Part shown: positions 3,969 to 56,142 of the stretch, piece by piece | Layout: every line of letters begins with the position of its first letter | Position numbering within the stretch: the stretch's first letter is position 1 | Source of the DNA: Microgenomates group bacterium | Lineage (GTDB): Bacteria > Patescibacteriota > Microgenomatia > UBA10105 > UBA927 | Direction: 5' to 3' | DNA length: 64,000 nucleotides | Assembly: GCA_049287205.1 (NCBI GenBank) | Contig: JBAQFJ010000001.1 | Location: 842,505 to 906,504 of the forward strand | Notes under the pieces: generated by a model | What the model was told of the DNA's origin: nothing | The model's database searches: none | The model's input: the letters and a program-made list of their open reading frames with translations, nothing else | Position numbers and translations under genes: made by a program

Positions 3969-4535
3969 TTATTCCTTATATTCGTGTCCGCTCCACACAA
4001 CATCTGGGACACCAACTGTTTTATTTATACCTCGCGCAATAATAAATAACAAGTCGGATAATCTGTTTACATACATCACCATAAGTGACATATGTTCTTT
4101 CGACACTGTACCGTTCATTTTTTTTGACCTGCTGTATGCAACCATCTGTCTTTCCACCCGCCTGGTAATACTCCGTACAATGTGAACAGTTGCCGACTCT
4201 TTTGTTCCGCCCGGCAAAACAAAATGAGAAAGAGGAGGGAGTTTTGTTTCAATCTCATCTATCCTTTTTTCCATTTCCCTAACCCGATGATTCAAAGATG
4301 ACACATCCCCTTTCCACCCCGCAAGTGTGCTACCGATAAGAAATAAGTCGTGCTGTACACAAACAAGCAGGTGTTTATTTTTCCCAATATGCGAAGTGTT
4401 GATTAATAATCCGATCCAACTATTTACCTCATCGATGGAACCGTATACTTCAACCAGACTATCGCATTTTACGACCCGTTTTCCACCAAAAAGCGCTGTA
4501 GTTCCATCGTCACCGGTCCGAGTATATACTGGCAT
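3969..4535 (-). CDS. pduO: ATP:cob(I)alamin adenosyltransferase, PduO type
   Basis: MPVYTRTGDDGTTALFGGKRV ... signature of PduO/MMAB-type adenosyltransferases. ATG at 4535 sits 2 nt after the nrdJ stop. Confidence 0.8.
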   Translation of the reverse strand: MPVYTRTGDDGTTALFGGKRVVKCDSLVEVYGSIDEVNSWIGLLINTSHIGKNKHLLVCVQHDLFLIGSTLAGWKGDVSSLNHRVREMEKRIDEIETKLPPLSHFVLPGGTKESATVHIVRSITRRVERQMVAYSRSKKMNGTVSKEHMSLMVMYVNRLSDLLFIIARGINKTVGVPDVVWSGHEYKE

Positions 4536-7660: not shown

Positions 7661-8218
7661 TTATTGCAACTCTTTTGCTCGTTCGATCAATTGCGTGACC
7701 CGTGTTAAAGACTCTGTCAGTCCATTTTTTTGTTCTTCGCTCGCCGCAAGCAACATTTCAGAAAGGATCTCTTCATGCTTTGCAAGCGATACATGAAGAT
7801 GATCGATAACATACACCGGAATAGTTGCTCCGGTTTTTTGATACTCGAGCAATGTACTTACCGCCTTTTCCATATATTTTTCCGCTTTACTCGTTGTTGT
7901 TTCCGCAAGCTCATGCTTTCCCGATGTAATAAGTAGCACACTCATCTGTAACCGTTTATCTCCCTGCAAAATATAAAACTCTCCTTTTTTCACGGGCTCC
8001 GCGATAATCTGTTCCAAAATAAAATCTCTCAAGCGTTTCAGTATATATAATGGATGGTCTGGCAGTACTCCTGGATATGGCAATGCATATTCAATTTTTG
8101 TTTTTGTATTTTCAACAGTTTTTGTGTTTAATTCAGGATTTACAGCAAGCACCGTATGCCAAACGCCGGCGACAAGAAATAATATAATGGCGAAGATAAA
8201 AAGTATTCTTTGTTTCAT
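7661..8218 (-). CDS. secreted hypothetical protein (DUF5667-like)
   Basis: N-terminal TM/signal, LPYPGVLPDHPLYILKRLRD motif. Confidence 0.45.
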   Translation of the reverse strand: MKQRILFIFAIILFLVAGVWHTVLAVNPELNTKTVENTKTKIEYALPYPGVLPDHPLYILKRLRDFILEQIIAEPVKKGEFYILQGDKRLQMSVLLITSGKHELAETTTSKAEKYMEKAVSTLLEYQKTGATIPVYVIDHLHVSLAKHEEILSEMLLAASEEQKNGLTESLTRVTQLIERAKELQ

Positions 8219-8227
8219 ATTGCCTCC

Positions 8228-8791
8228 CTACTCTTGTTGTAGTATAGCGTTTTTACAAGTTTTTATCATTTCTTCTGTATCCATCCCCATCAAAGAACAT
8301 AATTCCGCCTCTATCTGCTTTGCTTTTGGATACGCTGCGCGCAATACTTTTTGTTCTTTAGGAGTTATGTGCTCTGCTTCCCACAAATGAAACCGTTCAT
8401 CTACAGAGATCACTTCATATTTAGTCATTTTATCCGCAAGATACACTATTTTTTCCTCAAGTGATTTTGGAGCAATGTTGGAATCAAGAATTGCGTGTAA
8501 TGGATGTGTACGAACGATACCCGCAACTTCATCATATCCAAGCTCAGTGAGTATCCTGACTCCACAATCAGGATGCGTTTCACCTGGAAGTCCCGATATG
8601 TTTTTATCTATGTCGTGCAACAGTCCCGCAACATATACCAGCTCTTTTGATATACAAATACCTTTTTTCTGTTCTATCTGCGTTGCTATCCACCTGGCAA
8701 CGCGGGCAACTAAAAGGGAATGTTTTTGCTTCTGTTCTGGCAACGCATACGTTTGCCACAAAGCGATCGCTTGATCAGATGTTGGAATCAT
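8228..8791 (-). CDS. HD-domain phosphohydrolase
   Basis: LLHDIDK and downstream H/D residues of the HD superfamily. Confidence 0.65.
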   Translation of the reverse strand: MIPTSDQAIALWQTYALPEQKQKHSLLVARVARWIATQIEQKKGICISKELVYVAGLLHDIDKNISGLPGETHPDCGVRILTELGYDEVAGIVRTHPLHAILDSNIAPKSLEEKIVYLADKMTKYEVISVDERFHLWEAEHITPKEQKVLRAAYPKAKQIEAELCSLMGMDTEEMIKTCKNAILQQE

Positions 8792-8797
8792 TGCTGT

Positions 8798-9433
8798 TTA
8801 TTCCTCTTTTGGTTGACCATTTGCCTGAAAATACCCAAGTGCTTGAAGAACAAGGTTCAGTGTTTCTTTTGGACCGTGTGAATATGTATTAATGATTAAA
8901 TCGTAATGTTTTGGATCCCAAAAGTCAGTTACCCCATACATCCGTTCCCATTTTCCAATATTTGCTTCTTCTCGTTCGCGTAAATGTTTCTTTGCTTCTT
9001 CGACTGATAAGCTATCACGATTGACCACTCGGTCAATACGAAGTGAATCATCGGTCATCAACAAGACCTTTAATACATGTGGCAACCCCCGCATATTCCA
9101 TCCGGCAATCCATGATTCGACTGCCACGTGGGTCTCAGGATCAGAAAGTTTTTCTCGCATGGCAGCATCAATTTGATGATCAATTTCATCACTATAATCT
9201 GTTGCTTTATGATGGGTCACATCATTTACATCATGTTTCCCGTTTTCAATTGCAAATTTTCTTGCCCAGTCGCCGCCGGAAAATATTTCCCACCCTAACG
9301 GCTCAACGATTTCTTTTAAATTTTTTAGAAGCGTCGACCTTCCCGCTCCCGGCCTGCCGGAAATTGCGACACTTGAATATTTTAGTTTAGCCGTTAAAGT
9401 GTTCATGTTCCTATTATAGAACGGGAGTTGCAA
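8798..9433 (-). CDS. cytidylate-kinase-like P-loop NTPase family protein
   Basis: Walker A GRPGAGRST, about 200 aa, Cytidylate_kin2-like layout. Confidence 0.5.
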   Translation of the reverse strand: MQLPFYNRNMNTLTAKLKYSSVAISGRPGAGRSTLLKNLKEIVEPLGWEIFSGGDWARKFAIENGKHDVNDVTHHKATDYSDEIDHQIDAAMREKLSDPETHVAVESWIAGWNMRGLPHVLKVLLMTDDSLRIDRVVNRDSLSVEEAKKHLREREEANIGKWERMYGVTDFWDPKHYDLIINTYSHGPKETLNLVLQALGYFQANGQPKEE

Positions 9434-18814: not shown

Positions 18815-19588
18815 ATGAATCTTTTCCACGCTTTTATTCTTGGAATTATTGAAGGCATTACGGAATTTCTCCCTGTTTCTTCTACAGGACACATGATCCT
18901 CGCAGACACCCTTTTGTCTATTCCACAAACGGATTTTCTCACATCTTTTGAAATCATCATTCAACTGGGCGCAATTGCAGCTGTCGCCATTCTCTACGCG
19001 GACACACTTTTAAAAAAACGGTTTTTGATAAAACCACTTATTTATGCGTTTATTCCAACAGTCACTGTCGGGTTTATTTTTTATACAATCGTGAAACGCT
19101 ATCTTTTGGGGGACGCATTCATCGTCGTCTGTTCACTTGCAATTGGCGGATTAGCGTTTCTCATAATTGAACAGTATGTTAAAAAAAGAAAAACACCCAC
19201 AACATCACTTGAATCGATCACGCCAAAACAGGCAGTGTACATCGGACTTGGACAAACGTTATCCATGATTCCAGGCGTTTCCCGTTCAGCAGCTTCCATT
19301 TTTTCCGGTCTTCTTTCAGGGCTTTCAAAAGAAGCCGCGGTTGAATTTTCATTTCTTCTCGCCATTCCTACGATGCTGGCAGCCACCGGATATGACATCC
19401 TCAAAACACCTTTTCAAATTACTCCAACAACATTCCAACTCTTAAGTGTCGGTCTTATCACATCATTTGTAACTGCGCTCCTTGCAGTAAAATTATTTCT
19501 TCAGTTTGTAAAAAAACATTCTTTTTTACCGTTTGCCATCTATAGGATTCTTCTTGCGGGGCTCTTCTATTTCTATATTTTAAAATAA
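18815..19588 (+). CDS. uppP: undecaprenyl-diphosphate phosphatase
   Basis: MNLFHAFILGIIEGITEFLPVSSTGHMIL N-terminus characteristic of UppP/BacA. Confidence 0.85.
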   Translation: MNLFHAFILGIIEGITEFLPVSSTGHMILADTLLSIPQTDFLTSFEIIIQLGAIAAVAILYADTLLKKRFLIKPLIYAFIPTVTVGFIFYTIVKRYLLGDAFIVVCSLAIGGLAFLIIEQYVKKRKTPTTSLESITPKQAVYIGLGQTLSMIPGVSRSAASIFSGLLSGLSKEAAVEFSFLLAIPTMLAATGYDILKTPFQITPTTFQLLSVGLITSFVTALLAVKLFLQFVKKHSFLPFAIYRILLAGLFYFYILK

Positions 19589-22062: not shown

Positions 22063-22509
22063 TTACCATCCAAATTCAGAATAAAAAATAGATTTTGTAT
22101 GATTCAGAATAGCTTCTCTGATATAGGGAATCGTATTTTTTGGTAACGTATCAATAGGAAACCATTGGAGTCGACTACATTTGTCCGATTCCATGTTTTT
22201 TGGCTCTCCCTTCCACGCCTCAATAAGAAAGAAGAAATCCATACGGATATCATTGCTTTTCCTGTGCATGACATGGACCAGTTGTAGATCTTCCACCTGC
22301 ACAACAACCCCCACCTCTTCCTGAATTTCCCGTTTGGTTCCATATGTAATGGTTTCTCCGTCTTCTATATGTCCTGCGGGAAGACTAAACCAACCATCCA
22401 TATATCCGGTATTTTTCCTCTCGGAGAGTAAAATTTTATTTTTTTGATAAAAAATCCATATCCTGAAGCAATCATTCGAAATCGTTCCATATGGGAGAAA
22501 GTATAGCAT
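22063..22509 (-). CDS. NUDIX hydrolase
   Basis: Nudix box GHIEDGETITYGTKREIQEEVGV. Confidence 0.8.
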   Translation of the reverse strand: MLYFLPYGTISNDCFRIWIFYQKNKILLSERKNTGYMDGWFSLPAGHIEDGETITYGTKREIQEEVGVVVQVEDLQLVHVMHRKSNDIRMDFFFLIEAWKGEPKNMESDKCSRLQWFPIDTLPKNTIPYIREAILNHTKSIFYSEFGW

Positions 22510-22535
22510 ATCGATACTGATTTCCTTTTTTTACG

Positions 22536-27545: not shown

Positions 27546-28700
27546 TTAAAACGAAAGTAAATACTCCGCTGCACGAACCAATAAATGCGGGGAGGAAACT
27601 TTATTTTGTTGGAATTCCTCTTTCCATGCTCCATTTTTCCATACTGTAAGCGCTTTTGTGATACGTTTTATTTTTTCTTTATTCATATGAAATCCTAATG
27701 GAAAAAACAAAATATCACGAGTAGTTGACCATTTGCTGTCTGGAAATTTTGACCAAACAACAATATTTTTACGTTTAAGATAGGAAAGTAACGTTCCATC
27801 CATTTTTTTCTTCAACCCAACCGGATATACGTGTAATTTGCCATAATTACTTCGCTTCATCATGATTCGATAAAAAGGTGAGGATTTTGTATAGAGTGGC
27901 TTGAACATATGTTCGTAAATCTTTGTCTGCTCCCTCTTCACCCGCTCTACCGCTTCCCGATTAAGCCATTGCGAAACCCATGCGATCCCCCATATTCCGC
28001 GATGCGCCACAGTGTCGCCCATAATGTCGTCATGATTCTTCAAGATTTTTTTATGTGCAAACACTGCTATTGATGGTTTATTTAACACATATGACGCGAC
28101 TAATACCATCCTGAATAACATATATAAAAGCGTTGTATGTATTGTATACATAGACCAAAAACGTTTTGTCTGTGAAAATTGCATGCCCTTTTTTGTTCCA
28201 TACAGAAAACTTCCATATAACGGGGTCACTTTTCGGAGACTATCCATCAAAAAATGCTTTTCGTTTACAGGTTTCACTGTTTGCGGATCCAATAATTGTT
28301 GAACACAGTCTTCAATAAGGAGCGCCTTTTTTGTTATTTTTTGTATAACAGACAACGTACCAATTACAGTGCTCGCGATTCCTGCCGCATGAAAAATAAT
28401 GACAACTGCGGGGTGGTGACGCTGTACACTTCGAAGTAGCGCTTGTTTTTTAATCTGGAAATGCTTATCCAGCTTATAAAATGCCACGATATATCCATGT
28501 GAGCGCATATTATTAATCACGTCCGTACAATAAAAATCAGGAAGCAAGATAGTGCTCCCCTTTTCTATTTGTTTTTTTTGAAGCAAATCCCATAACCCGT
28601 CTTCCCAAGACCAGTAATAATATCGTTTTGTGAAGACATTCGGAAGACTCACGCGAGAGCTTAAAAAAGGAAATAAAAACGGTTGATAATGTTCAATCAT
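27546..28700 (-). CDS. hypothetical protein (384 aa)
   Basis: Track ORF. Weak resemblance to the DegT-like aminotransferase fold only. Unassigned. Confidence 0.4.
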   Translation of the reverse strand: MIEHYQPFLFPFLSSRVSLPNVFTKRYYYWSWEDGLWDLLQKKQIEKGSTILLPDFYCTDVINNMRSHGYIVAFYKLDKHFQIKKQALLRSVQRHHPAVVIIFHAAGIASTVIGTLSVIQKITKKALLIEDCVQQLLDPQTVKPVNEKHFLMDSLRKVTPLYGSFLYGTKKGMQFSQTKRFWSMYTIHTTLLYMLFRMVLVASYVLNKPSIAVFAHKKILKNHDDIMGDTVAHRGIWGIAWVSQWLNREAVERVKREQTKIYEHMFKPLYTKSSPFYRIMMKRSNYGKLHVYPVGLKKKMDGTLLSYLKRKNIVVWSKFPDSKWSTTRDILFFPLGFHMNKEKIKRITKALTVWKNGAWKEEFQQNKVSSPHLLVRAAEYLLSF

Positions 28701-31753: not shown

Positions 31754-32224
31754 CTAAAGAAGAATTGGCAAAAGAAATGGAGTTTTCCGGTATTCGAGAT
31801 ATTGTCTGATCGTTTCTCCGTGGTCGAATGCGAATTCATCAAACGGAAGAAGTTTTTCAATTGGAATCCATTCCACTTTGGAAGATTCCCAATCTTTTTC
31901 GCCAGTTTTTTTAAGCGGTTTAACAATAAATTCTATGGTAATATTTTGCCTGTCTTCATGAGGCCTATTTGGATTCGTATTAATTTTAAAAAGTCGCACA
32001 ACTTCCCCTTCCCACCCTGTCTCCTCTTTGAGTTCCCGTATGGCACACTCCGCAGCTGTCTCATCACGCTCTAAAAATCCCGCAGGCAAACTCCATTTCC
32101 CTGTTTCAAGTATCGGCCCATCTCGTTTTTCCAAAAGTAAACATCCATCTTTCTCTACAACCATGTGCACGACAACATGACGAAGTGAAGCATTATTTCC
32201 GTTTTCAAAAGTACAAGTCAACAT
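31754..32224 (-). CDS. NUDIX hydrolase
   Basis: Nudix box GFLERDETAAECAIRELKEETG. Confidence 0.75.
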   Translation of the reverse strand: MLTCTFENGNNASLRHVVVHMVVEKDGCLLLEKRDGPILETGKWSLPAGFLERDETAAECAIRELKEETGWEGEVVRLFKINTNPNRPHEDRQNITIEFIVKPLKKTGEKDWESSKVEWIPIEKLLPFDEFAFDHGETIRQYLEYRKTPFLLPILL

Positions 32225-32239
32225 ATACGTAGTATAGAA

Positions 32240-44580: not shown

Positions 44581-45144
44581 GTGAAAAAAGCCATCTCTAT
44601 TATCTTTTTCATTCTTGCAACGTTTCTTTTTGTGCCAAAATTCTCTCCTATATATGCGGAGTGCATCCAAACCGGATCATGTAAAATGGTCGGACAAGAA
44701 TGTTGCAATGGCAAAGCTCCTATATCTGCTAATGAATGTTATCAAAAAATGAAATGTTCTGACGCAGGCGCCGTGTTGACACCTACACCAGTAGCAACAG
44801 CCAACACATGTTCGCTCCTGAGTGGTACAGCAAAAACAACCTGTGAAGGTTGTATGAATGACGACAAACATGTGTGGACTGCCATCGGATGTGTTGAGGC
44901 AACATCAACAGGACTCCTCAATAAATTCCTTCCATTTGCTATCGGTATTGCAGGAGGAATCGCATTCTTGCTCATTCTCTTTGGCGCACTCCAAATGATG
45001 ATGTCTGCAGGAAATCCCGAGAAATTAAATGCCGGAAAAGAGCTAGTCACTGCAGCTATTACAGGGTTGCTGCTTATCATCTTTTCCATTTTCATTTTGC
45101 AGCTTGTCGGCGTAACAATATTAAAAATTCCTGGATTTTCATAA
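44581..45144 (+). CDS. VirB2/TrbC-like pilin-like protein (signal peptide + Cys-rich ectodomain + helical hairpin)
   Basis: Signal peptide. Ectodomain with about 11 Cys. C-terminal hydrophobic helix - SAGNPEKLNAGK - hydrophobic helix. Confidence 0.45.
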   Translation: MKKAISIIFFILATFLFVPKFSPIYAECIQTGSCKMVGQECCNGKAPISANECYQKMKCSDAGAVLTPTPVATANTCSLLSGTAKTTCEGCMNDDKHVWTAIGCVEATSTGLLNKFLPFAIGIAGGIAFLLILFGALQMMMSAGNPEKLNAGKELVTAAITGLLLIIFSIFILQLVGVTILKIPGFS

Positions 45145-45145
45145 T

Positions 45146-45484
45146 ATGCACCTTTTAGCACAAAAATTAACATTGCCGGGAAGTGAAATAAATCCAACTC
45201 CAATCGTAGGGCCATTGGGAGATAAAACAATTACACTTGGAGGAATTGTTTCTTCACTCTTTACCATTGCGCTTCCTCTTGCAGGTATTGGATTGTTAAT
45301 CATGATCTTAAGTGCAGGTTTTACTTTGCTTACCAGTGCAGGAGACGCAAAAAAAATGGAAAAAGGGAAACAAACACTTACCTATGGCATCGTCGGATTT
45401 TTAGTAATTTTTGTCGCGTATTGGATAACACAATTTTTTGGAACTGTATTTGGTATCACTGCGATTACCGAAATTTTCAAATAA
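45146..45484 (+). CDS. VirB2/TrbC-like pilin-like helical-hairpin membrane protein
   Basis: TM - TSAGDAKKMEKGK - TM hairpin. Same family as the six-gene array at 54.7-57.0 kb. Confidence 0.45.
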   Translation: MHLLAQKLTLPGSEINPTPIVGPLGDKTITLGGIVSSLFTIALPLAGIGLLIMILSAGFTLLTSAGDAKKMEKGKQTLTYGIVGFLVIFVAYWITQFFGTVFGITAITEIFK

Positions 45485-45487
45485 CAA

Positions 45488-46174
45488 TTATTTTCCAAAC
45501 CTTCGCTGTCTTGTTTGATACTCTTCAATCAGCTCATCCAATTTTTCGGGTGTGAAGTCCGGCATATACCACGTCGGAAATGCAAACTCCGCATATTCTA
45601 TTTGCCAAAGTAAAAATCCCGAAAGACGCTGTTCTCCGCCGGTTCTGATGACAAATTCCGGATCTGGAATTCCTGCCGTATCCAACTTTTCTTCGAGCAT
45701 TTTTTCAGTCACAACATCCACGTCCCGCAATATATTTATTGCTCGCACTATTTCATCCCGCCCTCCATAATTTAACGCAAAAATTGTTGTAATCTTTGTG
45801 TTATTTTTTGATTGTTCCACTACGTTTCTTAATGATTCCTGAATGTCCTCAGGAAACCGAGACAGATCACCAATTACCCGAATGCGCACTCCTTTTTCCT
45901 GCAGTCGTTGCCATCGTTTGTTAATAACGTGCCGAAATATTGACATGATTCCTTTTATTTCTGCTTCTGATCTATTCCAATTCTCTGTTGAGAATGCCCA
46001 AAATGTCATATACTTCACTCCTAATTTTGCGGCGTGTTCTATAAGAGGCTCCAGCGTCTCTTCCGCTACTTTTCTGTGCCCTTCAACAGATGGAAGCCCA
46101 TGTTCATGAGCCCACCTGCGATTCCCATCCATGATAACGGCGATATGTTGCGGAACTGAAATTTTTTTATCCAT
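45488..46174 (-). CDS. uppS: undecaprenyl-diphosphate synthase (cis-isoprenyl transferase)
   Basis: HIAVIMDGNRRWA motif. ATG 46174 is 2 nt after the MVD stop. Confidence 0.9.
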   Translation of the reverse strand: MDKKISVPQHIAVIMDGNRRWAHEHGLPSVEGHRKVAEETLEPLIEHAAKLGVKYMTFWAFSTENWNRSEAEIKGIMSIFRHVINKRWQRLQEKGVRIRVIGDLSRFPEDIQESLRNVVEQSKNNTKITTIFALNYGGRDEIVRAINILRDVDVVTEKMLEEKLDTAGIPDPEFVIRTGGEQRLSGFLLWQIEYAEFAFPTWYMPDFTPEKLDELIEEYQTRQRRFGK

Positions 46175-46175
46175 A

Positions 46176-47156
46176 TTAAAATAAATGTTGCTGTATACAA
46201 TGTGTTCCACGAGCCGGAGCATTGACTATAACTGATTGTACACCAAACACATTTTTCAGTGCGCTATGTACAATTTCCTCATTTTTCTCTTCACACAGAA
46301 TGTGCACATTTGGACCGGCATCCATTGTGTAATATGCGGGCGTTCCATTTTTCCGTAACTCATAAACCGCATCCATCACACGAAGTGTTGCGTCGTTCCA
46401 GTAAAACAGTGGCGGTTTCTGCGTCATCATGACACAGTGCATAGAAATTGCATCTTCCTCAATGAGTGCTCCAAACGCGTGTATATTTTTCGTTGTGAGT
46501 GCCTCTTGCATCGCAATAATTTTCTCAGGAATTTGCTGTACACGAGTGCGCCAATTTGGACTTGTCTTTATGGCATCCATCCCTTCGGTACTTGATATTT
46601 TTTTCGTCTCTTTTGAAACAACACAAACCATATCGCACATATTCCACCATGTAGAAGGGAACAAGGATTCAGCATATGAATCAGCAGATTTTTTTCCTGC
46701 ATGCCACCAAACAAATCCATCAGGGATACTTCTTGCCGCAGAACCTGAACCGATTCGTGCGAGTATTGTCAATTCTTTTTCAGAAAGAGCTAATCCAATG
46801 GCACGAGAAGCAGCGAATGAAAGTGCTGCAAATCCAGATGCGGATGAAGCAATCCCCGTCCCTTTTGGAAATGAATTTTTTGTCACAACATGAGCGTATA
46901 TTTTTTTTCGCGCGAGTCGTCGAAGCCGGTCAAGATGATTTTTAATCCGTTTACTTTCACTTTCAGAAATTGATTCGCCAACAAACGAAATATCGTCGCG
47001 GGTAAACGCCGAGGAAAATTCCACCGTTGTCATTGTCACTGCTCCGCTTAAATTCATAGAAATTGAATCGTTCAGCGGCAGACGAAATTTACCCGATCGT
47101 TTTCCCCAATATTTGATGAATGCGATATTTGCAGGAGCTACAGCAGTTATTTTCAT
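46176..47156 (-). CDS. mvaD: diphosphomevalonate decarboxylase
   Basis: GHMP-fold, MKITAVAPANIAFIKYWGKR N-terminus typical of MVD. Confidence 0.85.
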   Translation of the reverse strand: MKITAVAPANIAFIKYWGKRSGKFRLPLNDSISMNLSGAVTMTTVEFSSAFTRDDISFVGESISESESKRIKNHLDRLRRLARKKIYAHVVTKNSFPKGTGIASSASGFAALSFAASRAIGLALSEKELTILARIGSGSAARSIPDGFVWWHAGKKSADSYAESLFPSTWWNMCDMVCVVSKETKKISSTEGMDAIKTSPNWRTRVQQIPEKIIAMQEALTTKNIHAFGALIEEDAISMHCVMMTQKPPLFYWNDATLRVMDAVYELRKNGTPAYYTMDAGPNVHILCEEKNEEIVHSALKNVFGVQSVIVNAPARGTHCIQQHLF

Positions 47157-48577
47157 ACGAGTACCCCCGCCTGACGAAGTGATATGAGAGCGCCTTCCGT
47201 AAGTATCATTGCGCCTGATGCCACTTTAAACTTCAATTCTCTGGTGTCAAAAAAATCCACCTCCTCCACCTCATCTTTACTTATAATAAAGGGGCCTTCT
47301 GATTTTGCAGTATATAGACACGCCATTTCAGTTTCATTTGTTCCTTCAACAATAAATTTTTTAAAAAATATAATCGGCATATCAACACCAAGCTCTTCCA
47401 ATAACTCACGATGCATCGCCTCTTCATTTGTCTGCCCTTTCGTCACATGACCCGCGGAAGAAATTCCCCATTTACCCGGTTCCATGTCTTTTGTATGACT
47501 TCGTTTCTGCAACAATAATTTCCCTTGTTTATTATAAATAAGTACTCCAACCGTTCGGTGCATCAATGATTTATCATGATGGCATACATACCGAGACGCA
47601 TATCTGATAACAGTATCATCTGTATCCACAACAATGAACTGTTCTGACTGGTCATCCGTCGTATCGACACGAACTCCTTCTGTATTTACCGAAACTGATA
47701 CAACTGTTCCAATTTGAGCGATTGCCTTTTCTACTGCTTCTTTTTTTTCTTTCGAAACCAGTGCAATCATACAATCTCCTCCACCCGCCCCTGATAATTT
47801 TGCTCCAAACGCACCTGCCTGTTTTGCCGCATAAATCATGCTTTCCAACTTCTCTGTGCTCACACCAAGATCACGCAAATATTCCTGATTAAAGTTCATT
47901 AATTTCCCGACTGTTTCCCAATCTTTTTTGTCCCCTGCAACTTTTGCCTGCAGCACCAATTTTCCTATTGCTTCAAAAATTCGGTTTACCAATTCCGGCT
48001 GCGCATCTTTTTTCTTAGCGATATCTTTCACAATCGACGGAGTGTCAGCTTTTATACCGCTATATCCGACTACGAGCGATACATCGTCGTTCATATCCCA
48101 TGATAATTGCTGCAGTGTATCTCCGCCTTTGGTATACAGCAATGTACCCCCATGTGTTGCGGCGGCAACATCAAATCCGGAACCAACACCCTGTATTGTT
48201 AACACCGTCTTGTACGCTTGTTCAAACAAATTTTTTTTATCAATATTCTTATGAAACGTTGTTGCTAATGCCTCAAGTGTCGCAACTGTAACCGCAGAGG
48301 ATGATCCGAATCCGTAACAATTGGAAAAATTGCTATGCGTTTTTATGTGCAAACCATGGTGGGTAATTCCAAACGCACGACACCCATCAAAAATAGCCTG
48401 ATCAACAAACCGTGTGTCTTTCACTTGTGGTGCATCAATCGTGATTTTATTATCTTGTGTCTCTTCAATGGAAACAGCAAGTCGTTCAGACACTGCAGTC
48501 ACAAGACACGGGTACCCATACACTACCGCGTGCTCTCCCATAAGCATAAGTTTTCCCGGTGCAGAAATTGTCATCAT
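47153..48577 (-). CDS. GHMP kinase (mevalonate/phosphomevalonate kinase family) fused to type-1 IPP isomerase-like Nudix domain
   Basis: N-terminal SAPGKLMLMGEHAVVYG. C-terminal domain parallels E. coli Idi (HRTVGVLIYNKQGKLLLQKRS ... PGKWGISSAGH ... NEEAMHRELLEELGV) but has Ala where the catalytic Cys aligns. Confidence 0.7.
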   Translation of the reverse strand: MMTISAPGKLMLMGEHAVVYGYPCLVTAVSERLAVSIEETQDNKITIDAPQVKDTRFVDQAIFDGCRAFGITHHGLHIKTHSNFSNCYGFGSSSAVTVATLEALATTFHKNIDKKNLFEQAYKTVLTIQGVGSGFDVAAATHGGTLLYTKGGDTLQQLSWDMNDDVSLVVGYSGIKADTPSIVKDIAKKKDAQPELVNRIFEAIGKLVLQAKVAGDKKDWETVGKLMNFNQEYLRDLGVSTEKLESMIYAAKQAGAFGAKLSGAGGGDCMIALVSKEKKEAVEKAIAQIGTVVSVSVNTEGVRVDTTDDQSEQFIVVDTDDTVIRYASRYVCHHDKSLMHRTVGVLIYNKQGKLLLQKRSHTKDMEPGKWGISSAGHVTKGQTNEEAMHRELLEELGVDMPIIFFKKFIVEGTNETEMACLYTAKSEGPFIISKDEVEEVDFFDTRELKFKVASGAMILTEGALISLRQAGVLV

Positions 48578-48578
48578 A

Positions 48579-49514
48579 TTATTTTTTTTCGAGTTTTACC
48601 CCGTCTCCCCCCAACAATACCGGTTGTGTGGCATATCCGAACTTTTTCCCGATTTCTTCCACTACACTCTGTTCTTTATGATAGCAAAGCAGAAATCCTA
48701 CGCCATCTCTTTTCCCTCCGCCACCTAAAATTTTTGTAGCACCTCCATTTTTTTCAACCGCTCGTATAAAAGGAATAACTTTTTTTCCGACTACACCCAT
48801 TCGTTCAAGCGTCTCCTCACCCTTACTCATTGCGTTTAGTAATTGTTCTTCGTTTTGATCCTTAAGAGCTATTGTGATATTTTTTGCTTGTTCTTCGTTC
48901 TGAAAAAATACGTTTCTCATTTTTCTTCTATTTTTTTCAAACCGTTTTCTTACCAGCGCCACCATATCACCTGTTGTTTCTGTTGGCCTACCAGTATTTA
49001 TCAGAAAAAAATGGTTGACTGATGATGGTATCTTTATATCCAATTGCCACATGCTCTTCAAAAATTCCAATTCCTTCCGAAACCACAATATCCCCCCCAT
49101 TGTTACAATTGTATTATCGCCGCCGGATGGATTTCCATGTTGTTTTTTTTCCGCTTCATACGCTATCTGGTTAAACAATGTGGGATTCCAAATTTTTTTC
49201 AAAAAATATGTTACTGCGGCAACGGTTGCAACGGCTGTGGCGGCGGACGATCCCAAATGAAACCCCGCCGGAATATCTGAATCAACAGTAATTCGCATAG
49301 CGGGAATGGACGAGAGATGAAAATGTTCCTTCACTTTTTGCACTGCATACAATACATATTCAGGTGATTCAGTTGAAATAACTTCCATTTTCTCAGATGC
49401 TTCGACAGCAACCCGCATACGAAGATTTATTGCGGCAAGAAGCGCAGGTGTACCATATACAACTGCATGCTCTCCCATCAAATGGATTTTTCCCGGAACG
49501 GAAACAGTAATCAT
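48579..49514 (-). CDS. mevalonate kinase-like GHMP kinase
   Basis: SVPGKIHLMGEHAVVYG. Ser/Gly-rich ATP loop. Confidence 0.75.
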   Translation of the reverse strand: MITVSVPGKIHLMGEHAVVYGTPALLAAINLRMRVAVEASEKMEVISTESPEYVLYAVQKVKEHFHLSSIPAMRITVDSDIPAGFHLGSSAATAVATVAAVTYFLKKIWNPTLFNQIAYEAEKKQHGNPSGGDNTIVTMGGILWFRKELEFLKSMWQLDIKIPSSVNHFFLINTGRPTETTGDMVALVRKRFEKNRRKMRNVFFQNEEQAKNITIALKDQNEEQLLNAMSKGEETLERMGVVGKKVIPFIRAVEKNGGATKILGGGGKRDGVGFLLCYHKEQSVVEEIGKKFGYATQPVLLGGDGVKLEKK

Positions 49515-49810
49515 ATTGGTTTTACTTTAATGCCGTATGGAATAACCCCATCTGCTGCCGCGTCAATAGTTCTGCGAACAACAGTGAATACTTTTTGGTT
49601 TGTCCTAAGTTGGTCTTTTTCCCAATCAACAACTTGCGCTGTTATTTGCATACCACCATCCAGACGCACCACTGCAAGTGGATATGGTGCCTGTTCACTA
49701 AACCCATCAGGCGGCACCCGAATCATCGTCCACGAAACAATGCGTCCCGTTTTACCGATCAGCTTTGTAAAATGTTTTTGATTACGCCAAATTTTAACAG
49801 GACTAATCAT
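49511..49810 (-). CDS. DUF35 OB-fold/Zn-ribbon protein (archaeal thiolase-HMGS complex scaffold-like)
   Basis: About 100 aa OB-fold protein between thiolase and the kinases, as in archaeal-type mevalonate clusters. Confidence 0.65.
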   Translation of the reverse strand: MISPVKIWRNQKHFTKLIGKTGRIVSWTMIRVPPDGFSEQAPYPLAVVRLDGGMQITAQVVDWEKDQLRTNQKVFTVVRRTIDAAADGVIPYGIKVKPI

Positions 49811-49814
49811 AAAA

Positions 49815-50960
49815 TTATTTTTTTAAAATATGCACTACTGCTGTTGCACCGGACCCTCCAACATTATGAGCAAGTCCCAGCCTCGCATTTTTTACCTGCC
49901 GTTTTCCACACACTCCCCTGAGTTGATTTGTAATTTCCACAATTTGTTTTACACCTGTTGCACCAATCGGATGCCCACATCCTTTCAGGCCCCCTGAGGA
50001 ATTAATAACAATATGCTCAGCAGTTCCAAGTGTGTATGCTCCTTTTTCCATGCGCATCCCCACATCACCTTTTTTTTCAAATCCCATATCTTCAATTGCT
50101 AAAATTTCCGCAATGGTAAAACAATCATGCACCTCTGCAAGATGTATATCTTTTTGTCCGACACCCGCTTGAGTAAACGCTTGGAAAGCTGCCTGTTTTG
50201 TAGCCTGAAGTTCCGTTAAATTTTTTCGTCCGGCAAGTCCCAATGTGTCTGTTGCGACGGCGGAAGCAATAATATATACGCCGGATTTTTTACTTTGGTG
50301 TTTTGTAAGAATAATTGCTGCGGCACCGTCTGTAACAGGAGAACAATCAAGAAGCTTTAAGGGATCAGCAACGCAGGAACTTTTCATTACTTGCTCTACC
50401 GTAATTGGATGCGTAAATTGTGCAAGAGCGTTTAAACTTGCATGAAAATGATTTTTAACTGCTACACTTGCGAGTTGTTGTTCTGTGGTTCCATATTTTT
50501 CCATATGACTTCTGGCAAGAATTGCATACAGCCCGGGAAATGTTGCGCCTGCCAACCGCTCTTCATTAGATCCTGCTCCCATAAGCGCGGAGCTGACAAG
50601 CTCTGGTTTATGATCTGTCATCTTCTCTACTCCTAATACACACACCGTGTCATATTGACCCGACAAAATACTCATGATACCCGCGTGCACTGCAAGACCA
50701 CCGGACGCACATGCTCCTTCCACTGTATATGCAGGAATGCCAGATAAACCTAGCTCTTCTGCAAGAAGTGCACCTAAGTGCCCCTGCATACCAAGCATTC
50801 CCGATAACATGTTTGCAACAAATAATCCTTGAATTGATTTTTTCTCTATTCCACTGTCTTTTATCGCGGCTGCAACTGCAACACTTGCCAACCATCGTGG
50901 TGATGCCGCCCACAGCTCTCCAAATTTTGTCATTCCAATTCCTGCAACAGTTATGTTCAT
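49815..50960 (-). CDS. acetyl-CoA acetyltransferase (archaeal-type thiolase)
   Basis: Thiolase fold, active-site Cys region GACASGG ... CGHPIGATG. Confidence 0.85.
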   Translation of the reverse strand: MNITVAGIGMTKFGELWAASPRWLASVAVAAAIKDSGIEKKSIQGLFVANMLSGMLGMQGHLGALLAEELGLSGIPAYTVEGACASGGLAVHAGIMSILSGQYDTVCVLGVEKMTDHKPELVSSALMGAGSNEERLAGATFPGLYAILARSHMEKYGTTEQQLASVAVKNHFHASLNALAQFTHPITVEQVMKSSCVADPLKLLDCSPVTDGAAAIILTKHQSKKSGVYIIASAVATDTLGLAGRKNLTELQATKQAAFQAFTQAGVGQKDIHLAEVHDCFTIAEILAIEDMGFEKKGDVGMRMEKGAYTLGTAEHIVINSSGGLKGCGHPIGATGVKQIVEITNQLRGVCGKRQVKNARLGLAHNVGGSGATAVVHILKK

Positions 50961-52000
50961 ACTTTGTGTGTTTGTTTTAAATACCCAAGATAATCAACGT
51001 AGGTTTTATTTGCTATTTGTTGACTCACTAACCCCCGTAGGTTTTTTCGTTTTTTTTGAATCGTTACTAATGCATCTGTTGTCTTCCAAACAAAGGCGTC
51101 GCTTCCCGCCCCTGATCCATAGGAAACCATGCAGATTTTTTTATTTGGTTTTACCACATCAAGAACCGCTGAGAGACCCATCATAGAAGAAGCAGAATAG
51201 GGATTTCCAATATGATCAACGGTAAGTGAGGCGCTAAGTTGTTCACTGGTAAACCCCAACCGTTTTGCAACCTCCCGTGGAAATTTTCCATTTGGCATAT
51301 GAAACACACAATAATCAAAATCTTTTGGCTGCAGTTTTGACTTTTGAAACAGTAGTGTCGCCGCGCCCATAACATGTGCAAAATACGCAGGTTCTCCTGT
51401 AAATCTTCCTGCATGTGATGGATATCTGATCCCGTCTCTTCGCCAAAAATCAGGTGTATCTGATGAATAAGATGTGTATGAAAGAAGTGAGGCAATTACA
51501 TTTGTACTTCCCATCAACAAGGCAGATCCCGCTGACGCTGATGTATATTCAAGTGCATCATGCGGCTTACTCTGTGCAGTATCTGCACCAATCGCCATAC
51601 CGTAGGTAATTTGTTTTGCAGACAATAACCCTGCAATCATTTGCACTCCGGCAGTGCCTGCTTTACATGCAAACTCAAGGTCTGCCGCAAGATATGACGT
51701 TCCGACTCCTAAAAGTTCACCGATAATAGTCGAGCTTGGGTTCACGGCATACGGATGACTTTCTGATCCGACAAATAACGCCTCTATTGCTGATGGTTTA
51801 CCTTTAAAATACGACAGACTTTGAAGTGCGGCCTCAAGCGCAATCGTTACCGCGTCTTCATCAACACCCGGAACTGTTTTTTCGGTTACTCCCAAGGCTC
51901 CAATAATTTCCATGGGGTTTTTCTTCCACGCAGTGGCAATATCCTCTGTGTGCACCCGATATTTGGGAATATATGTTCCATATGACACAATGCCCATCAT
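50957..52000 (-). CDS. hydroxymethylglutaryl-CoA synthase (archaeal-type)
   Basis: MGIVSYGTYIPKYRV N-terminus. HMGS/KAS-III-like fold. Confidence 0.85.
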   Translation of the reverse strand: MMGIVSYGTYIPKYRVHTEDIATAWKKNPMEIIGALGVTEKTVPGVDEDAVTIALEAALQSLSYFKGKPSAIEALFVGSESHPYAVNPSSTIIGELLGVGTSYLAADLEFACKAGTAGVQMIAGLLSAKQITYGMAIGADTAQSKPHDALEYTSASAGSALLMGSTNVIASLLSYTSYSSDTPDFWRRDGIRYPSHAGRFTGEPAYFAHVMGAATLLFQKSKLQPKDFDYCVFHMPNGKFPREVAKRLGFTSEQLSASLTVDHIGNPYSASSMMGLSAVLDVVKPNKKICMVSYGSGAGSDAFVWKTTDALVTIQKKRKNLRGLVSQQIANKTYVDYLGYLKQTHKV

Positions 52001-53148
52001 AGTTGTTTCCCCCGTGCTAATTTTTGATGTGCCCGAGCAAGTGACCCTTCTGAAAGACTTGCAAGAAGCGAAATCTCGCCTGCAAGTACGGAAGCGCCAA
52101 GAATTTCCACAAATTTATTTTTATTTTTTTCTCCGTAGCACCCAAGAATTTGCAACGCCTCTTTTTGCGCACCAAGCCCTGTTCCTCCACCCACAGTTCC
52201 CACCATAAGATCAGGCATATACACACTCATATACAACTCTTTTTTGCGTACTTCTGCCGTCGTGACTCCAATGCTACATTCTCCAACGTGTGCAATATCC
52301 TGACCTGTTGCCAAAAAAACTGCCGCAAGCACATTTGCAAATTGCGCATTATTTCCCATTGATCCGCTCATAACACTTCCCAACATGCATTTAGAAATCC
52401 AAACATCATAGAATTTTTGCGCTGTTGTTTTCAACGTTTCCTGTAATACTTCTTCAGTCAACACAACTTCTGCCCACACTTTTGCTCCTCGTCCTTCTAT
52501 AAAATTCATCCATGATGGTTTTTTGTCCGTACAATAATTTCCGGAAAGTGCAACACATGAAATATGTGTCTGTTCTTGAATATACCGAGCGATTGCTTCT
52601 GTTGCGATAGTTACCATGTTGAGTCCCATTGCGTCTTTCGTATCATATTGAAACCGAACATACCGATATTGGCCAACGCCTCGGGAAAATATCTTAGTAA
52701 GTGTTATGTGATTGGAGGTAAACGCTGCAATTTTTTGCATTGCAGCCAAATGTGTATCCAAAAAGATACTTAACCTATCATTTTCAGCAAGACTTCCCAC
52801 GTAAAATACCGGTCCGCGCGTTGCGCCGACACTATACGAATCAACAATTGCACCACCACTTTGTGCAATGGCTTTACATCCCCGATTCACTGATGCTACG
52901 AGCGCGCCCTCTGTGGTTGCAAGCGGAATATATGCGGAGTGTTTTTTTGAGGATTTAATCGTTTGATACACAATGGGACCCGCAATACCAAGCGGCACTT
53001 GTGTTACTCCAATCATATTTTCGCAATGTCTCGTTGATGCAACAAATTCATCTATTGCACCCTCACTTATAGCGGACAATGGAATCTGTAATTCATGTTC
53101 CAGTTTTCTTCGCCTAACTGCAACTGCATCGTTTTTATCAAGCGTCAT
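51997..53148 (-). CDS. hydroxymethylglutaryl-CoA reductase catalytic domain (class I-like)
   Basis: DAMGLNMV and GTVGGGT motifs. Confidence 0.85.
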   Translation of the reverse strand: MTLDKNDAVAVRRRKLEHELQIPLSAISEGAIDEFVASTRHCENMIGVTQVPLGIAGPIVYQTIKSSKKHSAYIPLATTEGALVASVNRGCKAIAQSGGAIVDSYSVGATRGPVFYVGSLAENDRLSIFLDTHLAAMQKIAAFTSNHITLTKIFSRGVGQYRYVRFQYDTKDAMGLNMVTIATEAIARYIQEQTHISCVALSGNYCTDKKPSWMNFIEGRGAKVWAEVVLTEEVLQETLKTTAQKFYDVWISKCMLGSVMSGSMGNNAQFANVLAAVFLATGQDIAHVGECSIGVTTAEVRKKELYMSVYMPDLMVGTVGGGTGLGAQKEALQILGCYGEKNKNKFVEILGASVLAGEISLLASLSEGSLARAHQKLARGKQL

Positions 53149-53151
53149 ATA

Positions 53152-53769
53152 TTAAATAAATGGAATTTTAAATATTCCTAAGTGGTACATGCCAATGCTA
53201 TAAAATAGCATACTTCCTCCGACAACACCAAATACAGCGATAATACGCCATAAATCTAATTTCATCCCAAACCGTATGGTCAAATACGTCAACATCGCTT
53301 TCCAAAAAAATAATACTGAGGAAAAAATTAAAAATATTGCGCTGAATACCATACCTAATGGCCTACCGGTTCTTGGTGGAGGAAACAACACATACAAAAT
53401 TGATGTACCCAAAAACCATAAAAGCGTTGGAAGTAATGTGTACCCCCATGAAAGAGCAAGAACACGAAGACTTCCTTTTCCACCCATACATTTTCCAACA
53501 ATGAAAAGAAGCGATACTATCACGGCATACGTCACCACCACAGAAAGCGCGATGAGGATAAATTGTTTGGTTAAGACAAAGGGTCTGAATGCAGCAGTTT
53601 TTACCAATGACGCAATCGCAAAATAACAGGAAAGCAACACCCCAAGCGGAACAAGTTCCCATAAAGAACCGTGGTGAACAATACGTCTATATGCTTCGTA
53701 TGGTTTTGTCGCCAGTCCTACACTTGACCTGAAAAACGCAACACATCCGATAAGGAGTGAACCCGTCAT
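53152..53769 (-). CDS. polytopic membrane protein (Yip1-like, hypothetical), last gene of mevalonate operon
   Basis: 5 TM helices. 3-nt gap to the HMGR gene. Confidence 0.4.
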   Translation of the reverse strand: MTGSLLIGCVAFFRSSVGLATKPYEAYRRIVHHGSLWELVPLGVLLSCYFAIASLVKTAAFRPFVLTKQFILIALSVVVTYAVIVSLLFIVGKCMGGKGSLRVLALSWGYTLLPTLLWFLGTSILYVLFPPPRTGRPLGMVFSAIFLIFSSVLFFWKAMLTYLTIRFGMKLDLWRIIAVFGVVGGSMLFYSIGMYHLGIFKIPFI

Positions 53770-54633: not shown

Positions 54634-54722
54634 ATATATGCTGTAACTATACCATGGAACGAAAAACCAAGGCAATAAAGCCAAGCCTTGTGTTTACCTG
54701 CAATATTTCGTACACTTTTCCT

Positions 54723-55043
54723 ATGGAACGCATTTTCGCGCAAGATTCGGTCGACATAAAAGACATTTTTCAACCTGCAGGTTCATTTGCGACACTTGGA
54801 GATCTTGTTTCTGTCCTACTAAAGAATGCGTTCACTATTGCAGGGGTTATTTTTTTCGTTTTGTTGATTTTTGGCGGATTTACATTTATAGTATCAGCAG
54901 GTGGTGGCGATGCAAAAAAGGCAGAACAGAGCAAAAAGACCATTACAGCAGCTGCCACAGGGCTTGTTCTCATTTTTGCATCCTATTGGATCATTCAACT
55001 CATTGAAATTATTACAGGTGTACCAATTTTAAATTTGAACTAA
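54723..55043 (+). CDS. VirB2/TrbC-like pilin-like helical-hairpin protein (array member 1)
   Basis: LLIFGGFTFIVSAGGGDAKKAEQSKKTITAAATGLVLIF core. ATG 54723 preferred over track start 54654. Confidence 0.45.
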   Translation: MERIFAQDSVDIKDIFQPAGSFATLGDLVSVLLKNAFTIAGVIFFVLLIFGGFTFIVSAGGGDAKKAEQSKKTITAAATGLVLIFASYWIIQLIEIITGVPILNLN

Positions 55044-55044
55044 T

Positions 55045-55419
55045 ATGCATTTTTTAGAAAAAGTTTTTGCTGAAGGTGCAACCGATATCATTGGGACGGT
55101 CACCAATCCTATTACTCCAAAATATGGAGGTCTTGAAACAGGACTTATCCCTTTTTTCAGCAATGTGCTTCGGTTAGTATTTGCGGTTGCAGGTGTGTAT
55201 GCCTTCATTAACCTTATCCTTGCAGGATACGGCTACATGAGCGCAGGTGGAGACGCAAAAGCAGTTTCCAAAGCATGGGACAAAATCTGGCAAACACTTA
55301 TTGGACTTGCCATCATCGCAGGATCATTTGTCATTGCCGCATTGTTTGGTTACCTCATCTTTGGTGATCCGATGTTTATGTTAAAACCAACAATTTATGG
55401 CCCAGGTGTAACACAATAA
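55045..55419 (+). CDS. VirB2/TrbC-like pilin-like helical-hairpin protein (array member 2)
   Basis: LILAGYGYMSAGGDAKAVSKAWDKIWQTLIGLAII core. Confidence 0.45.
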   Translation: MHFLEKVFAEGATDIIGTVTNPITPKYGGLETGLIPFFSNVLRLVFAVAGVYAFINLILAGYGYMSAGGDAKAVSKAWDKIWQTLIGLAIIAGSFVIAALFGYLIFGDPMFMLKPTIYGPGVTQ

Positions 55420-55420
55420 T

Positions 55421-55795
55421 ATGAAAACGCTTGCAGACGTACAATTACAACAAATAGGTGAAGGCGGCGGCGGTTTAGGAACTTTCGGCGGACAAACTTT
55501 TACAGCTGACAGTGCCCTCTCATCATTTACCCATACGATATCCGCAATCATCGGTCTTTTAACAGCTGTAGCTGCAGTGTGGTTTCTTGTACAAATTACC
55601 TTGGGTGGCATCAGCTGGATAACTGCTGCAGGAGAAAAATCAAAACTTACAGAGGCACGTGACAAAATCACTCATGCGTTTATTGGACTTATCATTGTCG
55701 TTGCAGGCTGGGGAATTCTCGCGCTTGCAGGACAATTCTTTGGATGGGACACCATATTATTACCGTCGTCTGTCGGAGAATTAATTAAATTCTAA
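55421..55795 (+). CDS. VirB2/TrbC-like pilin-like helical-hairpin protein (array member 3)
   Basis: ITLGGISWITAAGEKSKLTEARDKITHAFIGLIIV core. Confidence 0.45.
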   Translation: MKTLADVQLQQIGEGGGGLGTFGGQTFTADSALSSFTHTISAIIGLLTAVAAVWFLVQITLGGISWITAAGEKSKLTEARDKITHAFIGLIIVVAGWGILALAGQFFGWDTILLPSSVGELIKF

Positions 55796-55800
55796 TTTCT

Positions 55801-56142
55801 ATGAACCGCATACTTGCACAAATCACCAATCCGGTTCTTCCAGCCAGTCTTGGCACAGGAACTGTGGAACAAGGCGGAACAGTTATCGGCAAACTCATCA
55901 GCAACATCGTTGGACTGTTGTTTATGTTTTCTTTTCTTTTAACACTACTCTATTTAATCATGGGTGGTCTTCAGTGGATCACAGCAGGCGGAGACAAAAC
56001 ACACTTGGAATCAGCGCGTAATAAAATTACAAATGCAATCGTCGGACTTATTATAGTTGCCGCCGCGTATGCGATATTCACCCTTGTCGGAGAATTTTTG
56101 GGACTTGATGTTGCAAACCTGCAAATTCCTTCTTTTAAGTAA
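55801..56142 (+). CDS. VirB2/TrbC-like pilin-like helical-hairpin protein (array member 4)
   Basis: LIMGGLQWITAGGDKTHLESARNKITNAIVGLIIV core. Confidence 0.45.
   Translation: MNRILAQITNPVLPASLGTGTVEQGGTVIGKLISNIVGLLFMFSFLLTLLYLIMGGLQWITAGGDKTHLESARNKITNAIVGLIIVAAAYAIFTLVGEFLGLDVANLQIPSFK

Follow-up and report, generated by a model that had tools for sequence, protein, structure and literature searches.

A mevalonate kinase fused to a Nudix domain that is probably a paralogue of type 1 isopentenyl diphosphate isomerase, in a conserved mevalonate operon of Microgenomates bacteria

A 64-kb stretch of a Microgenomates group bacterium genome (contig JBAQFJ010000001.1; the whole stretch is called the window here, and coordinates without a locus label are positions within it) carries a mevalonate (MVA) operon in which a single open reading frame (ORF) joins a mevalonate kinase (MVK) to a Nudix domain resembling type 1 isopentenyl diphosphate (IPP) isomerase (IDI-1). 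This ORF is a genuine, lineage-conserved fusion. Its Nudix domain belongs to a family, here called type A, that, as judged from aligned residues, is a combination of the His3Glu2 metal site and diphosphate-binding residues of IDI with a full hydrolase Nudix box. The residue pattern, together with the occurrence of true IDI-1 genes beside type A genes, suggests that type A is probably a paralogue of IDI-1 and not an isomerase itself, and that the protein routinely called IDI in these bacteria is probably a different enzyme.

Results

The ORF at 47153-48577 on the minus strand is uninterrupted and encodes 474 aa, with Pfam matches to GHMP_kinases_N and GHMP_kinases_C over residues 66-287 and to NUDIX over residues 340-450, which bears out a preliminary description of this DNA that had proposed a GHMP kinase fused to an IDI-like Nudix domain. 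The kinase domain aligned over its full length (residues 1-305) to the archaeal MVK structures 8teb, 6mde, and 4hac with 144-150 bits. A scan of species-representative genomes returned 21 loci, 19 of which are labelled Patescibacteria/candidate phyla radiation (CPR) or have the same CPR-type syntenic operon, the exceptions being a Fibrobacteria metagenome-assembled genome (L030) and an unclassified bin (L031). Two Gottesmanbacteria, one of them a complete 995-kb chromosome, a Roizmanbacteria, and Pacebacteria are among the 21, and the nearest relatives are Gottesmanbacteria and other Patescibacteria genomes. Ten other genomes at species level (L011-L017, L019, L020, L023) carry a continuous MVK-Nudix ORF of 457-504 aa, as does the metagenome contig L005, where a run of Ns breaks the gene call. 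Since the same ORF recurs in 10 further species-level genomes, the fusion is real and conserved in the lineage, and this conservation rules out a frameshift or assembly artefact as its origin. In L004, L025, L026, L028, and L029, the MVK and Nudix genes are separate yet adjoining; the fusion therefore arose when the stop codon of MVK was lost together with the short spacer in front of a neighbouring stand-alone Nudix gene.

The active site of the domain was compared with that of E. coli Idi; alignments to PDB structures give the same register. The alanine that had been noted at the position of Idi Cys67, the catalytic residue of the IDI-1 motif NxxC[GS]HP, was confirmed as Ala375 both by the Idi alignment and by the PDB alignments, and no cysteine is found at this position in the window protein or in any other family-like domain among 233 domains compared. 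The Cys67 column reads G82/S63/A49/T21, and its only five cysteines belong to E. coli Idi and to the first domains of four tandem proteins. The metal-site residues H333, H340, H377, E415, and E417, corresponding to Idi His25, His32, His69, Glu114, and Glu116, are present in the window domain and conserved family-wide. The Nudix box of the window domain, G376-x5-Q382-x7-R390 E391 L L E394 E395 L G397 V, departs from the consensus GX5EX7REUXEEXGU only at the first Glu, which is Gln382; Glu occupies this position in 136 of the 233 domains, and the R, E, E, E, and G of the box are retained in 199-224 of them. The window protein has I and G in the columns aligned with Tyr104 and Trp161, which line the carbocation pocket of IDI-1, and the column equivalent to Cys24 reads C95/A71/V30 across the 233 domains.

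A residue-by-residue comparison of 13 true IDIs with 15 members of the type A family separated the two groups. Arg83, Tyr104, and Trp161 are each present in 13/13 true IDIs and Cys67 in 12/13, whereas Cys67 is absent from all type A members (0/15) and Glu stands at both the Arg83 and the Tyr86 positions in 15/15. In IDI-1, Arg83 makes a contact with the diphosphate. The Tyr104 column is variable in type A (Y3/F3/I3/V2, among others), as is the Trp161 column (F4/G3/W3, among others). Equivalents of His25, His32, His69, Glu87, Glu114, Glu116, Arg51, and Lys55 are common to both groups, and the Lys21 equivalent in type A is Arg. IDIs have been described as lacking the canonical Nudix box that hydrolases keep, their own box being degenerate, RRxx[AYE]ExG (PMC5389931).

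Curated models did not accept the window domain as an isomerase or as YfcD: it scored 86.8 bits with the NCBIfam IDI model PRK03759 (cut-off 127), 63.2 bits with TIGR02150 (cut-off 105.8), and 76.5 bits with the YfcD model NF011922 (cut-off 152). The four Cys-containing IDI genes that share operons with type A pass both IDI cut-offs, with 144-237 and 118-156 bits. An AlphaFold model of the Nudix domain (predicted local distance difference test score, pLDDT, 96.9) matched many Nudix structures in a Foldseek search, the best folds being human and E. coli IDI-1, YfcD, and D. radiodurans DR0079, on which the model superposes equally; the domain falls in this IDI/YfcD/DR0079 sub-fold instead of grouping with unrelated Nudix hydrolases. 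Type A shares with IDI-1 (E. coli Idi, human IDI1) this sub-fold (template modelling score, TM, about 0.80 to 2i6k and 1hx3), the metal site, the Glu87/Arg51/Lys55 equivalents, and the pathway neighbourhood, and differs from it in lacking conserved Cys67, Tyr104, and Trp161, in having Glu for Arg83 and Tyr86, in its complete REUxEExGU box, in falling under both IDI cut-offs, and in co-occurring with real IDI-1. YfcD (PDB 2fkb), an uncharacterised E. coli Nudix hydrolase, is the top sequence match among solved structures (59.5 bits vs 46 bits for Idi) and gives the best superposition on the model (root-mean-square deviation 1.9 Å, TM 0.82/0.86); it has a complete Nudix box, like type A, but no equivalents of the His25, His69, Glu114, and Glu116 that type A has. 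A literature search found no functional study of YfcD, and we know of no isoprenoid gene context for it.

In a neighbor-joining tree, the true IDIs form a supported clade (169/200) inside an unresolved grade made up of type A and YfcD-like sequences, and the tree favours neither IDI nor the YfcD-like sequences as the sister group of type A. Type A shares on average 27% identity with IDI and 29% with YfcD. These results agree with, though they do not prove, a place for type A between hydrolases and IDI. Having retained the hydrolase box as well as the isomerase metal site, type A looks like a link between Nudix hydrolases and IDI-1.

With a profile built from close homologues, the type A family comprises 401 cluster representatives (50% identity) at E<=1e-30, most of which are stand-alone proteins of about 165-175 aa. 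The commonest multi-domain architecture is the MVK fusion, with 11 species-level genomes (MVK-Nudix representatives P0054, P0055, P0061, P0080, P0090). Others join a haloacid dehalogenase-type (HAD) phosphatase to the Nudix domain (P0137, P0154, P0183) or IDI-1 to type A (P0040-P0044). The tandem proteins with Cys in the first domain are P0040, P0041, P0042, and P0044; in the two that were read, P0040 and P0042, domain 1 is a textbook IDI-1 (NSCCSHP, RRLxEE, YQA, SPW) and domain 2 is type A, and the P0040 locus (L032) continues with a GHMP kinase. In P0043 and P0047, second domains that are IDI-like and keep Arg83 are fused behind a type A domain; the second domain of P0043 keeps the Tyr and Trp and reads ISFSSHP, a Ser standing where IDI-1 has its catalytic Cys. 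A distant family member, P0189, is a MazG fusion. In L033 (1542-2777), a fusion of a HAD-superfamily hydrolase (DxDG motif) with type A lies between the genes for diphosphomevalonate decarboxylase (MVD) and a GHMP kinase, and in L034 (98-1333) a fusion of the same kind, again with a DxDG motif, lies directly upstream of a GHMP kinase.

Cys-containing IDI-1 genes share an operon with type A in four cases (L006/L007, L019, L025, L029). The IDI-1 gene of L019 lies between DUF35 and the first kinase, that of L025 after MVD, and that of L029 directly upstream of type A. Full-length Cys-containing IDI-1 genes in L006 (3777-4331, +) and L007 (1347-1901) are 185-aa open frames from stop to stop, most of which the recorded L006 gene call misses, giving only a 92-aa product (4056-4334). 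The true IDIs beside type A are of three sequence types, CTHP, CCSHP, and CCGHP.

The prominence of the MVK fusion among the multi-domain architectures raises the possibility that type A is mainly a ligand sensor, binding IPP or dimethylallyl diphosphate (DMAPP) and feeding back on the attached kinase with little or no turnover. Many mevalonate kinases are feedback-regulated by downstream diphosphates. We regard a sensor role as quite improbable, since most members of the family stand alone, their catalytic-type residues are strongly conserved, and the same domain occurs without MVK in loci of the 2-C-methyl-D-erythritol 4-phosphate (MEP) pathway and of isopentenyl phosphate (IP) kinase (IPK).

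ORFs of the window were annotated with Pfam and NCBIfam models, which gave the minus-strand gene order Yip1, HMG-CoA reductase (HMGR), HMG-CoA synthase (HMGS), thiolase, DUF35, kinase, MVK-Nudix fusion, MVD, and uppS (Table 1). Junctions between cluster genes are overlaps of 4 nt or gaps of 1-4 nt, and domain models and junctions agree with the tightly coupled HMGR-to-uppS operon of the preliminary description. The trailing membrane protein that it had added does not belong to the operon, as the downstream membrane-protein genes at 44581-45484 are on the plus strand and convergent; the co-oriented membrane-protein gene, Yip1, leads the operon instead and is kept 5′ of MVA, MEP, or IPK modules in L001, L006, L011, L013-L017, L020, and L026. 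The label "archaeal-type" given to the operon holds for its upper half (thiolase/DUF35/HMGS and class I HMGR) and not for the lower half, which is the classical route of MVK, second kinase, and diphosphomevalonate decarboxylase; the phosphomevalonate decarboxylase model NF040704 gave the MVD protein 177.7 bits, under its cut-off of 475. Both GHMP kinases of the operon are closer to MVK than to any phosphomevalonate kinase (PMK) model, and the fused one is the only close MVK orthologue. The other, at 48579-49514, matched solved MVKs only partially (83 bits) and PMK models with 49-51 bits, and is by elimination a candidate PMK, a role that we infer.

Table 1. Features of the operon and of the fusion gene, with the model or alignment evidence for each
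Feature	Position	Strand	Evidence
Yip1-family membrane protein, leads the cluster	53152..53769	-	Pfam Yip1 37 bits; 3-nt gap to HMGR
HMG-CoA reductase, class I	51997..53148	-	Pfam HMG-CoA_red 370.6 bits; TIGR00533 398.9 bits, under cut-off 441.8
HMG-CoA synthase, archaeal type	50957..52000	-	NF003274 466.9 bits (cut-off 244); TIGR00748 426 bits (cut-off 353)
Acetoacetyl-CoA thiolase, archaeal-type	49815..50960	-	NF004720 458.6 bits (cut-off 420); Pfam Thiolase_N, Thiolase_C_1
DUF35/OB-fold partner of the thiolase/HMGS pair	49511..49810	-	Pfam OB_ChsH2_C 60.4 bits
Divergent MVK-like GHMP kinase, 311 aa	48579..49514	-	TIGR00549 172.5 bits (cut-off 163)
Fusion: mevalonate kinase domain, residues 1-304	47666..48577	-	TIGR00549 207.6 bits (cut-off 163)
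Fusion: IDI-like Nudix domain of type A, residues 305-474 (span ends with the stop codon)	47153..47665	-	Pfam NUDIX 66 bits
Fusion: Ala375 codon, E. coli Idi Cys67 position	47453..47455	-	Alignment WGISSAGHV vs WTNSVCGHP, unambiguous
Diphosphomevalonate decarboxylase (MVD)	46176..47156	-	TIGR01240 286.1 bits (cut-off 171)
uppS, undecaprenyl-diphosphate synthase (cis-prenyltransferase), closes the operon	45488..46222	-	TIGR00055 226.3 bits (cut-off 109.6); Pfam Prenyltransf 248 bits

Several related operons depart from this arrangement. The divergent PMK-candidate kinase of L014 (8270-9164, in the complete Gottesmanbacteria chromosome OY969569.1) was matched only as three short ORF pieces, which suggests frameshifts or a pseudogene. 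In L020, a 271-aa ORF that is methyltransferase-like by sequence reading alone (8182-8994, +) separates the two kinase genes, the operon being standard in other respects, and in L021 (3-4842) HMGS, thiolase, DUF35, the divergent kinase, a type A Nudix gene, and uppS are present without MVK or MVD genes between them. Arrays of small membrane-protein genes flank the window operon on both sides (44581-45484, +; 54654-56142, +), an arrangement kept in related loci, and their counterparts in the syntenic loci have Pfam T4SS_pilin matches. Elsewhere in the window are a BacA/UppP undecaprenyl-diphosphate phosphatase gene (18815-19588, +; Pfam 231 bits), ~26 kb from uppS, and a 384-aa ORF (27546-28700, -) with zero Pfam families at E<=0.001. 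No polyprenyl (farnesyl diphosphate, FPP) synthase was found in the window, and one adjoins the corresponding genomic slot in L006, L015, and L026.

This slot has a shared outline of sigma factor, Yip1, a variable module, Nudix, uppS, pilin-like genes, SpoIID, bPH_2, and SmpB. In the window (45488-53769) it holds a 7-gene MVA operon, in L001 (4382-11211) a 6-gene MEP operon (ispH, dxr, ispD, ispF, ispE, ispG), and in L006 (3201-7204) only IDI-1, a gene for a 292-aa protein, and an IP-kinase-like gene, the same type being found in L006-L008. The module is followed directly by the type A Nudix gene and then by uppS in L001 and L006-L008; in the window the MVK gene contains the Nudix domain as its C-terminal half, with MVD lying between this domain and uppS. 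The slot looks like the site of an in-place exchange of the IPP-supply module. As the same Nudix and uppS follow MVA, MEP, or IPK modules, type A is tied to the C5 precursor pool and uppS and not to mevalonate chemistry. The 292-aa protein of L006 (4331-5209, +), between IDI-1 and the IP-kinase-like gene, has zero Pfam matches. One stretch of it, GSLPAESRGENEALVDTTVRLFDEELSL, loosely resembles Nudix sequences, and the protein may belong to an isoprenoid salvage pathway at a locus without MVA or MEP genes.

Given that uppS is its most constant neighbour, with stop/start overlap in L001 and L006, type A might act on longer prenyl diphosphates (FPP, or the uppS product undecaprenyl diphosphate) and so provide the lipid carrier in its monophosphate form at the cytoplasmic face. 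Such a step would be productive whether the context is MVA, MEP, or IPK, the site could be opened by the absence of the residues closing the C5 pocket in IDI (the Y104 loop and W161), and a PAP2 phosphatase follows MVD in L004. The idea is nevertheless improbable, as the fold is a soluble one for small molecules and conserves the contacts to a C5 diphosphate, the fusion partners of the domain (MVK, IDI-1, and HAD) all act on soluble C5/C6 compounds, MVA-type operons place type A between MVK and MVD and not beside uppS, and the window already encodes BacA. A general house-cleaning nucleotide diphosphatase like DR0079 (cytidine di- and triphosphate, CDP/CTP), with no specific isoprenoid role, would be in keeping with DR0079 and YfcD being among the closest structures and with the MazG fusion of the distant P0189; we consider it very improbable in view of the systematic operon linkage and isoprenoid-enzyme fusions of the core family across three pathway types and >20 genomes.

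Discussion

The preliminary description had left two options for the Nudix domain, a mechanistically divergent isomerase or another Nudix activity such as an IPP/DMAPP phosphohydrolase, and the evidence favours the second without settling the choice. We tentatively prefer to see type A as an IPP/DMAPP-type prenyl-diphosphate phosphohydrolase rather than a canonical isomerase; the wider proposition, that it hydrolyses some isoprenoid diphosphate, appears reasonably probable. Hydrolysis is preferred because real IDI-1 occurs alongside type A, selection maintains the hydrolase machinery of type A, and a phosphatase is among its partners. The predicted ligand, bound in a pocket like that of IDI, is a prenyl diphosphate of C5 or short chain length, since the equivalents of Idi K21, R51, and K55 and the His3Glu2 metal site are conserved. 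The Nudix-box glutamates E391, E394, and E395 would hold Mg2+ on the diphosphate, the terminal phosphate would be hydrolysed (IPP/DMAPP to IP or dimethylallyl phosphate, DMAP, plus Pi), and the enzyme may act as valve or regulator for the pool of precursors used in undecaprenyl-phosphate synthesis. Mechanism, substrate, and physiological role are all inferred here, the substrate from gene context only.

Enzymes with this chemistry have precedents outside the family. Ishibashi et al. in 2022 reportedly identified MM_2582 of Methanosarcina mazei as an IPP/DMAPP Nudix hydrolase. The window domain scored 44.5 bits (cut-off 300) with the Nudix hydrolase model NF041653, which by its name concerns Methanosarcina and which we assume to be built on MM_2582. 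To our knowledge, none of the prenyl-diphosphate Nudix hydrolases of plants, nor MM_2582, has an MVK fusion or the IDI metal site. The chemistry proposed for type A, prenyl-PP to prenyl-P plus Pi, is that of AtNudix1, RhNudix1, TcNudix1, and MM_2582; the three plant enzymes fall in a different Nudix subfamily. In plants, Nudix enzymes remove a phosphate from IPP, DMAPP, or geranyl diphosphate, after which IP kinase reverses the step or a second phosphatase completes it (PMC7194074), and the type A-HAD fusions in the MVA clusters of L033 and L034 match this two-step, Nudix-then-phosphatase removal of prenyl diphosphates. TcNudix1 was considered as a characterised relative of type A and was rejected, as it belongs to the AtNudix1/RhNudix1 subfamily (PMC7194074).

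Several observations weigh against phosphohydrolase activity. The type A family contains no characterised enzyme, and IP kinase, which would close a cycle, turned up only in loci like L006-L008. For a reduced genome it looks wasteful to hydrolyse the product of its own pathway, and a plain hydrolase would not obviously need the His3Glu2 site and Glu116 equivalent that are so strongly conserved. A real IDI nearby is also compatible with a shared activity, as many organisms carry two IDIs. The main argument is that most MVA-type operons show no other IDI within 10 kb, and the window shows none in its 64 kb, although an organism relying on mevalonate alone needs DMAPP. Searches of the window's six-frame ORFs with the family hidden Markov model and of candidate ORFs with Pfam found only two generic Nudix genes (22066-22530 and 31757-32239), and no flavin mononucleotide (FMN)-type IDI was present among the window ORFs checked, a 64-kb window not being a genome. 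A weak, indirect search with the L019 IDI-1 as query returned no match attributable to the chromosome OY969569.1 among the 120 matches listed.

These absences bear directly on the chief alternative, that type A catalyses IPP/DMAPP isomerisation without the Cys/Tyr/Trp triad and provides most mevalonate-using Microgenomates with their sole IDI, with the Glu116 equivalent and a metal-bound water perhaps doing the chemistry and the MVK fusion linking the first soluble step of the lower pathway to the last. The MVA route yields IPP only and uppS requires an allylic primer, and because no other IDI is in reach to supply it, a Cys-less isomerase stays a live rival. The window and eight of the ten other fusion loci show no other IDI nearby, the exceptions being L019, where a true IDI-1 is present, and L012, whose sequence is too short for a judgement. 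Type A retains the metal ligands specific to IDI together with the Glu116 equivalent and the residues that bind the diphosphate, the gene lies between IPP-making genes and a prenyltransferase in three operon types, and the three sequence types of the neighbouring true IDIs hint at late, sporadic acquisitions. Type 2 IDI (IDI-II) is reported by Hoshino & Gaucher 2018 to be sparse in CPR (PMC6107057).

Against isomerase activity, three catalytic or pocket residues have been lost together, and no conserved thiol or acid substitutes for them. Cys67 mutants of canonical IDI are essentially inactive, and C67A structures of IDI are among the PDB matches of the window domain. Scores fall under the curated IDI cut-offs, and a genuine IDI-1 has been kept beside type A or fused to it in five independent contexts. 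The full hydrolase Nudix box, lost from all real IDIs (PMC5389931), is under selection in type A. On balance, an isomerase is unlikely. Its strongest form, with type A as the sole isomerase of most mevalonate-using Microgenomates and a triad-free, third mechanistic kind of IDI, the true IDIs being later horizontal additions, seems distinctly unlikely. In the same reading, type A could represent a surviving transitional form that links Nudix hydrolases to IDI-1 and perhaps has both activities.

The operon type itself is already known. Hoshino & Gaucher 2018 described the CPR mevalonate operon, its mix of archaeal and bacterial genes, its synteny with a cis-prenyltransferase, and the synteny of IPK with "IDI-I" (PMC6107057), and every element of that operon (acetoacetyl-CoA thiolase, AACT; HMGS; HMGR-I; MVK; second GHMP kinase; diphosphomevalonate decarboxylase, DPMD; "IDI-I"; synteny with the cis-prenyltransferase, cis-IPPS) is present in the window. 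In that paper the IDI-I set was collected by BLASTP at E<1e-5 and CPR IDI-I was not monophyletic, and its main text does not use the words Nudix, cysteine, or fusion, "fused" occurring once (PMC6107057). Here the "IDI-I" of CPR resolves into two paralogues, the common one without the isomerase residues. A literature search of incomplete coverage found no paper on the missing catalytic residues or intact Nudix box of CPR "IDI-I", on the coexistence of type A with a true IDI, or on fusions to MVK, HAD, or IDI. What is new is thus the type A family with its residue pattern, contexts, and fusions, and the usual IDI annotation is probably wrong.

This matters for the biology of these organisms in that CPR isoprenoid reconstructions, and arguments on the ancestral mevalonate pathway, count the type A gene as IDI-I. 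The question is directly testable, type A being a small soluble protein. If type A proves to be an isomerase, it works without residues held to be essential for type 1 IDI. If the phosphohydrolase reading that we prefer is correct, most mevalonate-using Microgenomates would be without a recognised source of DMAPP, a concrete gap in their metabolism, and the "enigmatic" IP kinase of CPR would gain a partner in an IP/IPP cycle as in plants.

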